From NCBI GenBank assembly GCA_043807015.1, contig JAZDGJ010000028.1, positions 1,537-65,536 on the forward strand: DNA of 64,000 nt, read 5' to 3'. Source of the DNA: Candidatus Woesearchaeota archaeon (lineage in GTDB: Archaea; Nanobdellota; Nanobdellia; Woesearchaeales; UBA10216). The notes under the pieces were generated by a model. It was not told where the DNA came from. It searched no databases and saw only the letters and a list, made by a program, of their open reading frames with translations. The position numbers and the translations under genes are program-made. Of the stretch, positions 21,887 to 56,950 are shown in pieces (position 1 is the stretch's first letter; each line of letters opens with the position of its first letter).

Positions 21887-22732
21887 ATGCTACTCAATGT
21901 TACAGACCTTCCAGCTTACATCTTTTGCCCCAGAAAGCTCTATATGCGCAAGATTTTGAACATTATCGAGCCGCCAACTAAAGCCACAGTCCTGGGCACT
22001 TTAAGGCATGCAACCCATGAGCAGCTCAGCAAGATGGATGAGACTGTCATAAGGCAGCTTAACAAGGACCATTCTGAAGACGAGGCAGCAACTCTTTTTT
22101 CAAAGAATTACCTTAGGGCATTGAGAGATACTGTAAACTCGCATCGCAGCCATTTGAATGAAGTGGGGCTTGAGGCAGAGGATGTTTTTATTGATGTATG
22201 GCCGTTCATAAAAGAAGAGGCAGTGGTTCATGCGAAAGATGTTCTTTCAGTTTCAAAGGCAACAGGTCTTTTCGGAGATGATCTGCTAAAGCACCTCCCG
22301 AAAGTTATTTCCGAGCACCATGTCAAATCAGAAAGCCTTCAGCTGAAAGGAATAATTGACAGGATAGAAGTCGTGAAAGGGCAGTATATCCCCTATGAAC
22401 TGAAAACAGGCTCTGCTCCTGCTGATGGAGTCTGGCCTGGACATAAAATACAGGTTGCATGCTACATGATGATGCTTGAAGAGGCTTTTAAGATGCCTGT
22501 GAGGGAAGGTTATGTGAAGTATCTTGACTGCAGGGAAGACCGCAGAGTGGTTATGAACCCATTCCTTGAGATAGAAGTTAAAGAACTGATTGCAAAAGTG
22601 CAGAAGCTCCTTGAAAACAAGGAAATGCCCGACCCCTGCGGCAAAAAATTCTGCAATTGCTCTAATGTCAAAAACCACGATTTACAGAAGAATGGCAGTC
22701 TGCTGCAAACTAGCAAGCTCAGTGGTTTTTGA
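21887..22732 (+). CDS. Cas4-like / RecB-family PD-(D/E)xK nuclease with 4-Cys Fe-S cluster signature (standalone)
   Basis: N-terminal Cys (YIFCPRKLY), IIDRIE...YELKTG (D..ExK), QVACY (QhxxY motif), C-terminal CGKKFCNC. Confidence 0.65.
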   Translation: MLLNVTDLPAYIFCPRKLYMRKILNIIEPPTKATVLGTLRHATHEQLSKMDETVIRQLNKDHSEDEAATLFSKNYLRALRDTVNSHRSHLNEVGLEAEDVFIDVWPFIKEEAVVHAKDVLSVSKATGLFGDDLLKHLPKVISEHHVKSESLQLKGIIDRIEVVKGQYIPYELKTGSAPADGVWPGHKIQVACYMMMLEEAFKMPVREGYVKYLDCREDRRVVMNPFLEIEVKELIAKVQKLLENKEMPDPCGKKFCNCSNVKNHDLQKNGSLLQTSKLSGF

Positions 22733-22738
22733 GCATGC

Positions 22739-22780
22739 TCAGAATTCCACAAATCATACGTAAAAGACGTGGAATTCTGA
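22739..22780. repeat. perfect 12-bp inverted repeat tcagaattccac / gtggaattctga with 18-nt spacer at the 3' end of the Cas4-like gene
   Basis: Read directly. The same arms recur at 37505-37570. Confidence 0.6.
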
Positions 22781-37504: not shown

Positions 37505-37570
37505 TCAGAATTCCACCATTCTGAGAATGGTGGAGTAAGCTGCTGAAGTTAATGGCTAGTGGAATTCTGA
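37505..37570. repeat. second copy of tcagaattccac / gtggaattctga inverted-repeat element with nested 10-bp palindrome, at 3' end of trmB copy 2
   Basis: Arms at 37505-37516 and 37559-37570. Inner ccaccattct g agaatggtgg at 37513-37533. Outer arms extend imperfectly (tgagca ... tgctca). Confidence 0.6.
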
Positions 37571-37681
37571 CTGTGCTCAAAGACCACCTTGCTGCATAAC
37601 CTACCGCAACATACCTCAAATCTCTGATTGGTGGTCTTTGACATGCAAAATTTTTAAATAGGCTTCTTTATTCTTATCTTT

Positions 37682-47832: not shown

Positions 47833-48063
47833 TCAGCTGTATTTTGTAAAGCCAATCCTGCTGGCTGTGTCCCTGAAGCATCTCCTGCACAGGTTTATGC
47901 CGTATTTTCCCACGTGGCCCCTAGGATTTCCGCAACGGGTGCATCTTTTTGTTTCCCTTCCGAACTCCCTTTTCTTTGGCGTGTTGAATTTTTCAAAGCG
48001 CTTCATCTTTGCCGGCTTATTTTTGAGCTGTTTCAGCATGTTAAGGTATGTTCCTACAGTCAC
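47833..48063 (-). CDS. rps14: 30S ribosomal protein S14 (uS14, zinc-binding type)
   Basis: [24 protein letters not shown]. Confidence 0.8.
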
Positions 48064-53340: not shown

Positions 53341-53598
53341 TTACATCATTCCCATTTGAGTGGCAACATCAATTGCCGGCGTCTCGGGTGACAGCCTTAC
53401 ATATGCCCTCTTTTTGCCGCCCTTGAGCAGTGTATTTACTTTTGTTACCTTGACGTTGAATAAGCTCTCAATCGCCTTCTTTATGTCCTGCTTCTTTGCC
53501 CGCTTTGAGACTGAAAACAGCAGCTTGTTCTCTGATTCCATGAGCCTGATTTCCTTTTCAGTTGAAATCATGTGGTTGATTACTTCGTAATTTTCCAT
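53341..53598 (-). CDS. rpl23: 50S ribosomal protein L23 (uL23)
   Basis: 85 aa. Operon position. Confidence 0.8.
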   Translation of the reverse strand: MENYEVINHMISTEKEIRLMESENKLLFSVSKRAKKQDIKKAIESLFNVKVTKVNTLLKGGKKRAYVRLSPETPAIDVATQMGMM

Positions 53599-53600
53599 TT

Positions 53601-54407
53601 TTATCTCGCGTATATCTTTTCTTTTTTCATCCTTTCAATGGCAGTTGTTGTTATCAGCACAGGCCTTCCAGGTATTGTGCCGGGAGCAAGCAGTTCTGCA
53701 TTTAACTTGTTTACCGAAGATACATCAATCCCAGGTATGTTTCTTGCTGCCTTCATGAGGCTGCAGTCGTTTGAGACGATTATGAGCAAACCCTTCTTTA
53801 CCCTGTATTTTCTTCCGCGCATCCTGCCTCTTCCAGCCCTTTGAACTTTTTCAGAAGTTCTTTCAAGCTCCTTTTCCATGCCCACTTTTTTCAATGCAGA
53901 GAAAATTTCCTTTGTCTTTGAAATTTTTTCAAAAGAGTCGTCTGCTGCAAACGGGTAGTTTGCAGGCACATTGTGTATTTTGCTGACAAGTTCCTTTGAC
54001 ATTACTGCGGTGAGGGCAGAGCGTATTGCTTTTCTCTCTTCCTGCCGGTTCATTTTTCTTTCAAGTATCTTCCAGGACTTTGGAGGATGCGCCCTGTGTC
54101 CGCCAACCGTGCTCGGCACGAATGCGCCGACCCAGTTGAATTGAGTTCCGCGGTGGCTCATAATTTTCCTTGGCACCCTTGATATTCCGTGCCCATATGC
54201 CCCTCTGTAATCATGCCTTCTCCTTGACAATGTGGCAGAAGCCCTCTTTCCAGCTTCAGGAAAGTTGCCGTATGGCTGCCAGTTCCTGCTTTGCTCTGCA
54301 AGCACTGCCCTTGCTATAAGGTCTGCGTTTACAGCTTCATTGAACTGCTCAGGCAGCTCAATCTCGCCGGTTTTCTCGTTAGCCGCATTTCTTACTTCGA
54401 TTTTCAT
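53601..54407 (-). CDS. rpl4: 50S ribosomal protein L4 (uL4)
   Basis: 268 aa. GRGRMRGRKYRVKKG loop. Confidence 0.85.
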   Translation of the reverse strand: MKIEVRNAANEKTGEIELPEQFNEAVNADLIARAVLAEQSRNWQPYGNFPEAGKRASATLSRRRHDYRGAYGHGISRVPRKIMSHRGTQFNWVGAFVPSTVGGHRAHPPKSWKILERKMNRQEERKAIRSALTAVMSKELVSKIHNVPANYPFAADDSFEKISKTKEIFSALKKVGMEKELERTSEKVQRAGRGRMRGRKYRVKKGLLIIVSNDCSLMKAARNIPGIDVSSVNKLNAELLAPGTIPGRPVLITTTAIERMKKEKIYAR

Positions 54408-54408
54408 T

Positions 54409-54468
54409 GGTTCACTGGGCTTTCGCCTTAGTCTTTTTACACAGGTTCACTGGAACCGCCAGTGAACC
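54409..54468 (-). promoter_or_regulatory. structured L3-L4 intergenic RNA element: 10-nt stem GGUUCACUGG with two alternative CCAGUGAACC partners, the distal one abutting the L4 AUG
   Basis: Plus-strand ggttcactgg at 54409-54418 and 54444-54453, ccagtgaacc at 54459-54468. An adjacent cccaa-caa-ttggg hairpin flanked by A/T runs at 54469-54495 overlaps the L3 stop. Confidence 0.5.
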
Positions 54469-54493
54469 TTAAAAATCCCAACAATTGGGGTTT

Positions 54494-55480
54494 TTATTGT
54501 TTTGATGACAAGTCTATTGTTGTTATTGAAGGAGCCTCAGTCGGGAGCTTTTTGTTTGGCCTTGCCGCAGGAGTCATCCTTATCAGCCTTTTTGAGGCTC
54601 CGAATACAGAGCCCTTTAGAAGCATGTAATTGCTCTTGACAAGCCCGTATCTTATCGCGCCGCCTTTTGGGTTCACAGTTTCAGGGTTTTCTGACATCTT
54701 GACAATCCAGCTGTTTCTCTGCAGCCTGTTGTGGAAGCCCATCTGACCTGCATGTGCCACAGTCCAGCCGCGGTTGCCGTTCCATGGGCCGTAGTTTCCC
54801 GGTCCTCTAACGCCTTTCTCAGATTTGTGCTGTTTTAGATCAACTCCAAATCTTTTTACAGGGCCTTGGAAGCCTTTTCCTTTTGTGACTGCGTGAATGT
54901 CAACCTGCTGCCCTTCCTTTAAGACATCTGCTGCCTTGATTTCCTTTCCAAGGTTCTGCTTTGCATAGTCGAACTTTGCATTGATTTCCTTTCCGCCGAT
55001 TGCAAGCTCGAAAACCTCAGGCTTCTTCTTGCCTGTTGCAGTAAGCTCTGGCTGTGTGCAGACATTTATCCTTACGTCAGCATATTCGCCCAGCTTCTGC
55101 TCGGCAGCTGCGATTTTAGGCAAAGCATCTTTTTTTGGCAGCCTCATGGTGCGGGCAAGCGCTTTATAGTCAGAATGGAATATTTCATTTGCAAGGGCAA
55201 GTCCCCTGTCAGTTTTTTGGTAAAGGCGTATTGATATGAGCCTGAGCGGCGGGCACTCAATTATTGTTGTCGGGATTGAGATTTCCTCGCCTTTAGTCAT
55301 TGAGTTTTTTCCGTTGTCGACCATTATCACGTGGGTCATGCCGACTTTGTAGCCGGCAAATCCAATCGGCTTAATTTCTGGAATAGAAGGATAGCTTCTC
55401 ACTCGGGGATACATCCTGTGCGCCCTCTTCCTTGGCGCAAACTGCAGGGTTCCTCTTCTCGGGTGCCTTGTTGTTGCCAT
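54494..55480 (-). CDS. rpl3: 50S ribosomal protein L3 (uL3)
   Basis: 328 aa. First gene of the operon. Confidence 0.9.
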   Translation of the reverse strand: MATTRHPRRGTLQFAPRKRAHRMYPRVRSYPSIPEIKPIGFAGYKVGMTHVIMVDNGKNSMTKGEEISIPTTIIECPPLRLISIRLYQKTDRGLALANEIFHSDYKALARTMRLPKKDALPKIAAAEQKLGEYADVRINVCTQPELTATGKKKPEVFELAIGGKEINAKFDYAKQNLGKEIKAADVLKEGQQVDIHAVTKGKGFQGPVKRFGVDLKQHKSEKGVRGPGNYGPWNGNRGWTVAHAGQMGFHNRLQRNSWIVKMSENPETVNPKGGAIRYGLVKSNYMLLKGSVFGASKRLIRMTPAARPNKKLPTEAPSITTIDLSSKQ

Positions 55481-55567
55481 TTTGGATTCTTATCTCTTTG
55501 AAACTTGCCGTTGGAAAAAGCCTTTTAGTGAGTCCTCTTATTCAGAAACCAGAGCCGCAACTCAGTA

Positions 55568-55618
55568 CTGAAAAGGTCCCTTTTCAGGCTTAACGCGGTA
55601 TTCACCGAGTGAATACCG
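55568..55618 (-). promoter_or_regulatory. two strong hairpins in about 170-nt leader / priS 3' region upstream of rpl3 (stems ctgaaaagg/ccttttcag and cggtattcac/gtgaataccg)
   Basis: Perfect 9-bp and 10-bp stems read directly. Minus-strand TATA-like ctttaaata overlaps the priS stop at 55644-55654. Confidence 0.45.
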
Positions 55619-55651
55619 TCGGATTAGCGAAGGGAGAAATGGGAGGGGTAT

Positions 55652-56950
55652 TTAAAGATTGCTCTTTTTTCTTGGCGTTCCTGCCCGCCTTCTAGCATAG
55701 TTCACAGGGTTCCTAACCCTGCACACTGCAGAATCGCATTTTATCCCCATATCGGAATAATATGCCTTGTTGTCACAGTTCGGCGGCAGTATTGCTTTTT
55801 TCTGGTATTTCTGATAGCGGAGCTGCCCGACAATGTAGACGTCCTTAAGCGGCTGCTTGTTTTTCAAGTTCCATTCTTTCAGCCTTTTTTCAATGCTCTC
55901 AAAGTCCCATCCGCAGCTTCTCAGGAAGTTTGAGAGTATGAACAGGCTTCTTTTCCTTCCATCGTCTACTCCTTCAAGCAGTTTCAGTATGCAGGGAGGG
56001 AAAAATTTCTCTGGGATTGCCTCCTCAGGGATATCATATTCTTTCTCCTCAGAAGCCTTTTGTTCTATCTTTGGAGAAAAGTCCATTGCCTCTGTGAGAA
56101 GCAGCGCTGCCTCGTTCTTTTTCACATTTTTCCTGTCAATGAAAACCAATCCTGCCTTGACTTTTGAGGGCATTGCGCTTTCCTTGCTGAAGCTCAGGAT
56201 CTCTTCTTCCTTTATCGGTAGGGAAACAAGACCTGATTTTTCGTGCAGGGAATATGGCATCCTGTAAAGGTGCCTTGAAGAGATAAGCAGCGTGTCTATT
56301 GCAAGGAATGGCTCAACATTTAGGATTAATGTCTCGCCTGATTTCATCCTTATCTCTTCCTGCTTCTTGCCTGTCTTCTGCATTATTGCCGAGAAGTCAT
56401 TTTTCTCAAGCTTCATTATTGCCTCGCCAAGGGGCTTTTTTATCATCTCCTTGATGTAAAAAGCAATTCTTCTTGCTGCTTCAGGAAACATAAGCCTTGT
56501 CTCAATGCTGCCGATTTTCTCAGGAAACGCCTCGTATGGCACGCCTATGTGAAAGCCCTTGTTGCCTGAGAACTTTATTGAGCAGGATTTTATGCCCATT
56601 TTCTTCAGTGTCTTGGCAACAAGGTCTGCAGCAACCTTTGAATATTCTATGAACTGGCAGTCTATGTCCAGCACCAAATCCCACCCGGTTCTTAAAGCTT
56701 CAATTTCGCTCTTCTGCATCATTGGATTCAGCTGCATCGGGTTGCTCCACAGCTCTTCTGAGGCGTGAAAAGAAGTCGCGCCCTGCTTTGCAAACTCAAG
56801 TATGTCTCTGGGATAGTTAAGAACATCAGGCCTTTTGCCAAACTGATCGTTAAACCTTACGGCAACTTCCTTGTTCTTGGCATGCTCAACCATCGTCTTC
56901 TGGATATCTTCCCTTTTGTAGTAAGTCAGAAGCGTGCTGAGGTGAATCAT
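55652..56950 (-). CDS. priS: DNA primase small (catalytic) subunit PriS with C-terminal Cys-containing extension
   Basis: DLVLDIDCQ (catalytic Asp motif) and FSGNKGFHIGVP (SGxRGxH). 432 aa versus the usual ~340. C-terminal PPNCDNK...IKCDSAVC. Confidence 0.8.
   Translation of the reverse strand: MIHLSTLLTYYKREDIQKTMVEHAKNKEVAVRFNDQFGKRPDVLNYPRDILEFAKQGATSFHASEELWSNPMQLNPMMQKSEIEALRTGWDLVLDIDCQFIEYSKVAADLVAKTLKKMGIKSCSIKFSGNKGFHIGVPYEAFPEKIGSIETRLMFPEAARRIAFYIKEMIKKPLGEAIMKLEKNDFSAIMQKTGKKQEEIRMKSGETLILNVEPFLAIDTLLISSRHLYRMPYSLHEKSGLVSLPIKEEEILSFSKESAMPSKVKAGLVFIDRKNVKKNEAALLLTEAMDFSPKIEQKASEEKEYDIPEEAIPEKFFPPCILKLLEGVDDGRKRSLFILSNFLRSCGWDFESIEKRLKEWNLKNKQPLKDVYIVGQLRYQKYQKKAILPPNCDNKAYYSDMGIKCDSAVCRVRNPVNYARRRAGTPRKKSNL

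Follow-up and report, generated by a model that had tools for sequence, protein, structure and literature searches.

A probably young, palindrome-rich insertion between the uL3 and uL4 genes of a Woesearchaeota lineage

The uL3-uL4 junction and its repeats

The window, by which we mean the whole 64-kb stretch of DNA that was analysed, carries a ribosomal-protein operon of ~14 kb in which uL3, uL4 and uL23 follow one another on the minus strand (Table 1). The best database relatives of its L4 protein are annotated as Woesearchaeota/Nanoarchaeota (DPANN archaea) and share at most 89% identity with it, and a protein identical to this L4 has no record in the public gene index. Throughout the operon, gene spacing ranges from -20 to +4 nt. 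The first-pass annotation had singled out the 86 nt between L3 and L4 as an exception in an otherwise tightly packed operon, and our survey agrees: the second apparent gap, at 47890-48060, is occupied by a small S14-like gene, which leaves the L3-L4 interval as the sole true spacer of the operon. In mRNA sense the junction reads ...AAAACAA-UAA-AAACCCCAAUUGUUGGGAUUUUUAA-GGUUCACUGG-cgguu-CCAGUGAACC-uguguaaaaagacuaaggcgaaagc-CCAGUGAACC-a-AUG, and the 3' end of uL3 can be aligned with the L3 genes of relatives up to ...AAAACAAT.

Table 1. Features at and around the uL3-uL4 junction, with positions in the window.
Feature	Position	Strand	Basis or remark
uL3 (rpl3)	54494-55480	minus	Pfam PF00297, E=2.7e-63
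uL4 (rpl4)	53601-54407	minus	Pfam PF00573, E=1.6e-32; ATG at 54407-54405
uL23	53341-53598	minus	Pfam E = 1.2e-17
uL3 stop codon TAA	54496-54494		T from the ancestral CAAT, AA from the insertion
L3-L4 spacer	54408-54493		86 nt
90-nt lineage-specific insertion	54406-54495	minus	alignment with L001 and L002
CAAT at the two insertion edges	54499-54496 and 54409-54406		
Terminator-like hairpin uAAAAACCCCAAuugUUGGGAUUUUU: A5, CCCCAA-uug-UUGGG(A), U5	54471-54495	minus	terminator-like scan and MFE structure
U-run (U5) of the terminator-like element	54475-54471		
Perfect 11-bp hairpin A-GGUUCACUGG, loop cgguu, CCAGUGAACC-U	54443-54469	minus	includes the flanking A-U pair
Arm 1, GGTTCACTGG	54468-54459	minus	
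Loop CGGTT	54458-54454	minus	
Arm 2 (copy 2), CCAGTGAACC	54453-54444	minus	
Small GGC-GAAA-GCC stem-loop between copies 2 and 3	54418-54427	minus	sequence reading; MFE and centroid structures
Copy 3, CCAGTGAACC (mRNA CCAGUGAACC)	54409-54418	minus	exact; followed by a single A and the L4 ATG
TATA-like TTTAAATA upstream of uL3	55656-55649		171 nt of non-coding sequence between it and the L3 ATG
Core of the leader upstream of uL3	55590-55519		

The annotation had described a perfect hairpin in the spacer, a third exact copy of its 10-mer immediately before the L4 AUG, and a small A-run/hairpin/U-run element at the L3 stop. All of these sequence claims are correct; the last element was recovered by a terminator-like scan and overlaps the L3 stop codon. 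Counted with its flanking A-U pair, the hairpin ranks fourth in stability among the 34-nt local folds of the window (-18.4 kcal/mol). Finding one 10-mer three times within 60 nt is indeed highly non-random, as had been asserted: this is the one case in the window, and 100 shuffles produced none. The 64-kb window holds no further copy of the 10-mer, even with one mismatch allowed. Copy 3 includes the SD-like motif AGUGA, four bases 5' of the L4 AUG, and SD-like AGGTGA or AGTGA motifs precede other genes of the operon at comparable spacing. RNA folding of the junction, the first check that had been proposed, predicts a stable structure of -31.6 kcal/mol (z = -3.2), a stability matched by none of 200 shuffles.

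Comparison with relatives and the origin of the spacer

We compared the junction with that of the six closest lineages that could be examined, whose L4 proteins are 63-89% identical to that of the window; two of these junctions (P0001 and P0004) are known from gene coordinates and the other four from DNA. L3 and L4 are separated by a 1-nt gap in P0001 (L4 89% identical) and in P0004 (81%), and they overlap by 4 nt in P0002 (L001; 87%), P0003 (L002; 85%), P0005 (L020; 68%, reading ...ACAATGAAA...) and P0006 (L022; 63%). An ATGA stop/start overlap is therefore present in four of the six relatives and the spacer in none. The annotation had suggested a translational switch or a protein-binding site mimicking rRNA, for autoregulation by L4 or another ribosomal protein, and had named beforehand the absence of the spacer from close relatives as the outcome that would speak against it. 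This is the outcome we obtained, and the idea of a conserved element falls with it: both the spacer and its repeats are absent from all six relatives, and Rfam contains no match. Such an absence removes the comparative support for function, yet it does not exclude a young, lineage-specific function, with which it would be compatible. Given that none of the six closest lineages has a spacer, the ATGA overlap is ancestral for the clade and the spacer derived in the lineage of the window.

Alignment of the window with L001 and L002 places one clean 90-column gap between ...AAAACAAT and GAAAATCG..., and the flanks match base for base; the window and its close relatives thus differ by presence or absence at an otherwise collinear site. 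CAAT stands at both edges of the insertion, and the boundaries can slide by 4 nt. The AA brought in by the insert converts CAA-T to CAA-TAA, which is the new L3 stop, and its terminal ...CCAAT rebuilds the L4 ATG. As a possible target-site duplication, the CAAT match has a chance probability of ~1/256, but selection for an ATG can partly explain it, a point against the insertion reading.

We think it probable that the spacer is a young, palindrome-rich insertion of 90 nt into an ancestral uL3/uL4 ATGA overlap, specific to this Woesearchaeota lineage and tolerated there. Its source could be a small foldback or MITE-like element, or an insertion made by templated or microhomology-mediated repair. 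The hairpins and the threefold 10-mer are most likely products of the insert's repeat structure and recent origin, and not of a selected regulatory design. A small palindromic insertion inside an operon is a feature of a kind already known. MITE, REP/BIME and Correia-like insertions resemble the spacer in being short (60-90 nt), rich in inverted repeats and located between co-transcribed genes; they also share with it presence/absence variation, stable mRNA hairpins with a possible effect on termination, stability or translation and, perhaps, a short duplication at the edges (CAAT in the insert). Unlike those elements, the spacer is known in one copy, its inverted repeats are internal to the 90-nt insert, and neither the window nor the public collections that were searched yielded a transposase partner or a family.

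These differences weigh against the insertion reading to some degree. The 10-bp inverted repeats do not lie at the termini of the 90-nt insert: its ends (AAAAACCCC... and ...CAGTGAAC) are not inverted repeats, as the ends of a MITE would be, and GGTTCACTGG and CCAGTGAACC reach the termini only in a unit narrowed to 54409-54468. No second copy was found, so any mobility of the element is putative. When the insert was compared with the 64-kb window by blastn-short, no part of it had a second copy. In public collections we searched for the palindrome as the pattern GGTTCACTGG-N3-8-CCAGTGAACC, a search that requires an exact match and that diverged copies escape. It gave seven matches in 185,579 GTDB species genomes, all of them bacterial (MAGs or isolates), ten in JGI metagenomes and none in IMG/VR; the flanks were unrelated in every match and the counts are close to chance. 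The multiple copies typical of MITEs were accordingly not seen, with none beyond the first in the 64-kb window and chance matches alone in the public collections. Rfam 15 was searched with the spacer, with 3 kb around it and with the whole window, first at gathering thresholds, which no match reached, and then permissively with E up to 10, which returned generic chance matches to a hairpin plus T-run. Neither the window nor the genome, metagenome and viral collections yielded a homologue of the element, whose structure is predicted from its single sequence (z = -3.2).

Several other identities were considered and set aside. On inspection, the left hairpin does not resemble the small one on the right, which does not fit IS200/IS605-like or PATE-like ends. 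A C/D-box sRNA or a K-turn would call for C or D boxes or an asymmetric GA loop, and the spacer has none of these; ARAGORN found no tRNA in the window. We also rejected an origin by copying from the L3-upstream leader, where a GGTATTCAC/GTGAATACC hairpin looks alike, because the local alignment score falls inside the shuffle distribution. The same score bears on the possibility that the perfect 11-bp palindrome and the third half-site form a DNA-level operator bound by a transcription factor. While the palindrome does adjoin a TATA-like A/T stretch, the likeness is not significant, the half-site is not repeated elsewhere in the 64 kb, the relatives lack it and no regulator gene is a neighbor, and we regard an operator as very improbable. 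In keeping with an insertion, this genome also contains a family of intergenic hairpin repeats distinct from the insert; repeats of this type thus exist in it.

The contig is metagenome-assembled, and an assembly artefact could in principle have produced the spacer. The missing public record for the L4 protein of the window would fit this, as would the fact that no independent assembly of the locus was found. However, the insert is unique sequence and not a duplicate of a neighboring repeat, both reading frames are exactly preserved, and misassembly rarely creates 90 nt of new sequence. We give an artefact hardly any credence.

How old the insert is bears directly on how its perfect repeats are to be read. 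At four-fold degenerate sites of L4, the window differs from L001 and L002 at 47-49% of positions (K4 = 0.75-0.81). If the insert were neutral and as old as this split, about 12 changes would be expected over the 30 repeat nucleotides, but not one is seen. The insert must then be much younger than the split, or else selection acts on the repeats, and identity among all three copies would likewise be expected in the second case, a further point against the insertion reading. With the nearest L4 in the collections only 89% identical, both readings are compatible with these data; we favor youth, since nothing in the other tests points to a function.

A leader upstream of L3 and spacers in other Woesearchaeota

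In E. coli, the leader of the S10 operon is the site of L4-mediated autoregulation. That leader and the L4 r-leader candidate that precedes rplC-rplD in Archaeoglobi (Eckert & Weinberg 2020, PMC7247131) resemble the spacer in belonging to an operon with uL3 and uL4 and in having hairpins with a U-run. They differ from it in lying upstream of the operon's first gene and in being conserved within their lineage, whereas the spacer lies between L3 and L4, is not conserved and has no Rfam model. In the window, the position that corresponds to the Archaeoglobi candidate (PMC7247131) and to the E. coli S10 leader is taken by a different structure, which lies within the 171 nt of non-coding sequence between the TATA-like box and the L3 ATG.

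The core of this leader is near-identical between the window and L001 although ~49% of four-fold sites differ. As a stem-loop of ~80 nt, the leader is recognizable in all nine lineages for which upstream DNA is available, and each of the nine sequences individually folds into the same long stem-loop. The fold has an outer helix (AGCCU/AGGCU), a conserved internal loop in which GAAAA faces ACUAAA, a long helix with covariation and an apical hairpin that varies, and is usually followed by a 3' U-run. A covariance model built from seven sequences finds one match per lineage, always upstream of L3, and it matches two sequences outside its training set at E = 1.3e-3 and 7e-3. In the model alignment, the paired fraction of cells is 92.6% and compensatory changes are seen in 7 of 15 pairs, values that none of 500 shuffles reaches; controls in which the alignment was slid are 30-68% paired. 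An alignment fitted to a model is biased towards structure, and RNAalifold on an independent MAFFT alignment gives compensatory changes in 5 of the 15 pairs. Rfam has no match for this leader. On this comparative evidence it is a better candidate for a ribosomal-protein leader than the L3-L4 spacer, and it would be the place to look if autoregulation exists.

In all, we examined the L3-L4 junction in twelve lineages, the window included. Two of the others also have long and structured spacers: that of the marine lineage L023 (L4 60% identical) is 65 nt long and contains two perfect 11-bp hairpins (z = -6.6), and that of L031 (L4 59%) is 110 nt long and forms one long hairpin (-42 kcal/mol, z = -5.6). 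Neither sequence is related to the spacer of the window. L026, whose region upstream of L3 is closely like that of L023, has an L3-L4 spacer of only 10 nt, and the hairpins of L023 therefore also look inserted. Other long spacers in these operons are unstructured (z between -1.8 and +0.8, and between -1.8 and +0.1 for those at L2-S19). Structure is thus found in three of three long spacers at L3-L4 and in none of three elsewhere, although the numbers are small. The pattern, a point against the insertion reading, is suggestive of a site that tolerates insertions or of selection for structure at L3-L4.

It is tempting to speculate that the second of these holds, and that the uL3-uL4 junction of Woesearchaeota repeatedly and independently gains strongly structured hairpin spacers, as in the window, L023 and L031, because uncoupling L3 is advantageous. 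The spacers would then act as an intra-operon attenuator, an RNA-processing or stability element or a translation gate, and that of the window would govern L4 initiation as an SD/anti-SD-mimic switch. We assign this scenario a low probability.

Possible effects on L4 expression

The annotation had also held that the 10-mer can pair either locally or with the L4 initiation region, and folding supports this: the two pairings are near-isoenergetic. Constrained ensemble energies are -36.2 kcal/mol for the local hairpin and -35.0 kcal/mol for arm 1 with the AUG-proximal copy, and in the unconstrained ensemble the pair probabilities are ~0.61 (61%) for the local and ~0.39 (39%) for the long-range helix, which spans positions -2 to -11 relative to the L4 AUG. 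On these predictions, the alternative pairing of arm 1 is physically plausible. Two mutually exclusive helices of similar stability, one of them over the ribosome-binding region, are what SD-sequestering switches such as RNA thermometers and riboswitch expression platforms have, with the same choice between two partners, one of them over the SD/AUG, at close energies. Unlike those switches, the spacer has neither a sensor domain nor conservation, and the likeness is one of predicted pairing.

In a young functional switch of this type, the anti-SD-like arm 1 (GGUUCACUGG) would be shared between a decoy copy and the SD/AUG-proximal copy. It would tune initiation of L4 and, via coupling, of the downstream ribosomal-protein genes, and the cue might be a ribosomal protein such as uL4, or temperature. 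The near-equal helices (0.61 vs 0.39) and the position of the long-range helix over -2 to -11 of the AUG are what such a switch would need, and copy 3 places its AGUGA at a spacing also seen before other genes of the operon. None of the three copies has a mismatch, despite a K4 of ~0.8 to the nearest sequenced relatives, and structured L3-L4 spacers recur in two other lineages. However, recency explains perfect repeats equally well, the element is missing from all close relatives examined, no known leader matches it, and the usual site of such control, upstream of L3, is already occupied in this operon by a conserved and structured leader. The anti-SD resemblance of arm 1 is to the 3' end of archaeal 16S rRNA, GGAUCACCUCC; the window contains no rRNA gene, 16S included. 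Taking both sides together, we consider a functional switch unlikely.

The hairpin and U5 directly 3' of the L3 stop allow another reading, in which the operon is split after L3 by an internal terminator or attenuator, perhaps accompanied by a new internal promoter; in the latter case TTTTTAAG, ~60 nt upstream of the L4 ATG, would be a weak TATA box. Termination in archaea relies on U-tracts, and internal operon terminators (ioTTS) are documented in ribosomal-protein operons of Methanococcus maripaludis (PMC10450193, PMC8716108). The junction shares with such sites an intergenic U-tract inside an operon, here with a hairpin before it; as in the M. maripaludis case (PMC10450193), the U-tract follows a gene inside a ribosomal-protein operon. 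T5 tracts also occur in the spacers of L023 and L031, and the U5 here is one of only two non-coding sense-strand T5 runs in the operon. The M. maripaludis sites (PMC10450193) differ in separating ribosomal-protein genes from RNA polymerase subunit genes of different dosage, whereas equimolar ribosomal proteins lie on both sides here. A further difference from that case is that T5 runs are not avoided elsewhere in the operon of the window: sense-strand runs of T5 or longer number 7 against 2.5 expected, and 5 of them are inside genes. By itself, then, T5 probably does not act as a strong stop in this operon, and we set aside the U5 as an exceptional terminator signal. A strong stop ahead of more than 20 essential genes would also be harmful. 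An internal promoter was rejected on its sequence, since TTTTTAAGG poorly matches TTTAAATA and TTTATATA, the boxes that precede other genes of the genome. Overall, a terminator or attenuator that splits the operon seems distinctly unlikely to us.

We return, then, to a tolerated insertion. An essential operon could absorb it because both reading frames survive: as read from the sequence, the insert supplies a new L3 TAA stop, a rebuilt L4 ATG and the SD-like AGUGA. Termination-reinitiation coupling between L3 and L4 would presumably have been replaced by independent initiation of L4. During transcription, arm 1 would be expected to pair first with its neighboring copy, so that the one next to the start codon stays unpaired. 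Once equilibrium is reached, the L4 SD/AUG region would be paired in about 40% of molecules, a minority conformer, and the hairpin plus U5 after the L3 stop may terminate some transcripts. Judging from these predicted structures, an effect of the insert on L4 translation is possible.

As a regulatory discovery, the spacer deserves little weight, being an insertion in a single lineage without comparative support. It is of interest as a natural experiment: 90 nt of hairpin DNA came to separate two essential genes that an ATGA overlap had coupled in translation, and the pair came through because stop codon, SD-like motif and start codon were all restored by the insert. The main value of the locus lies in the pattern of recurrent spacers and in the L3 leader. 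Of the two, the leader is the more useful: this conserved, covarying stem-loop is a candidate for a new ribosomal-protein leader in DPANN archaea, a group from which, to our knowledge, hardly any cis-regulatory RNAs have been described. Should selection lie behind the recurrent structured spacers at L3-L4, the junction would be an unrecognized control point inside the archaeal S10-like operon.

Spacers between uL3 and uL4 in two other lineages

Very strong structure was seen in the spacers between the uL3 and uL4 genes of two other Woesearchaeota lineages, L023 and L031; these spacers are independent, and their sequences are unrelated (see table; z scores folding stability against shuffled sequences). 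Unlike them, other long spacers of these operons are unstructured.

A hairpin family elsewhere in the window

Hairpins of the form TCA-RA-NNN-CCAC ... GTGG-NNN-TY-TGA, with stems of 11-13 bp, lie in tandem pairs at, or shortly beyond, the 3' ends of plus-strand ORFs, and the first copy falls within the terminal part of ORF 21887-22732. The 12-nt arms (TCAGAATTCCAC) of two copies are identical, and the mid-stem covaries from copy to copy; the copy at 37505 has one 5' arm and two alternative 3' partners. Searches of this family against tRNA models and Rfam returned no match. A similar hairpin is located before L3 in a distant relative (L028, 984-1009).

A candidate leader RNA upstream of uL3

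Coordinates of the features described in this section and the two preceding ones
Feature	Location	Strand	Remarks
Conserved stem-loop RNA, ~80 nt (L3 leader)	window 55519-55590	minus	5' of uL3, the operon's first gene
Whole non-coding stretch holding the leader	window 55481-55651	minus	
TATA-like box of the leader	window 55649-55656	minus	
Gene for 432-aa protein with matches to primase families	window 55652-56950	minus	upstream of the leader
Hairpin family copies	window 22668-22732, 22739-22780, 37505-37570, 37577-37641		tandem pairs
L3-L4 spacer of L023	1936-2000		two perfect 11-bp hairpins, z = -6.6
L3-L4 spacer of L031	1891-2000		single long hairpin, -42 kcal/mol, z = -5.6

The stem-loop upstream of uL3 was found in every Woesearchaeota lineage sampled (9/9), in one copy each. 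It consists of an AGCCU/AGGCU outer helix, an internal loop that is conserved and a long, covarying helix, followed by a U-run, and compensatory changes occur at 7 of its 15 pairs across the nine lineages. Rfam holds no match for the stem-loop.

The TATA-like box of the leader is overlapped by the stop codon of the upstream gene, whose product matches both small- and large-subunit DNA primase families in Pfam, the large-subunit match scoring 19.3 bits, under the 22.4-bit cut-off. Relatives have the same upstream neighbour, again matching both subunit families.

A short distance 5' of the conserved core, on the minus strand, lies a further hairpin (CGGTATTCAC-tcg-GTGAATACCG, 55596-55618). Relatives retain a hairpin at the matching position, but its sequence is not the same; in the lineage L020, for instance, it reads GGTGTTCAG...CTGAACACC. 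The hairpin at 55596-55618 is probably part of the same leader RNA as the core. We consider the conserved stem-loop a candidate for a new r-protein leader or attenuator of DPANN archaea.
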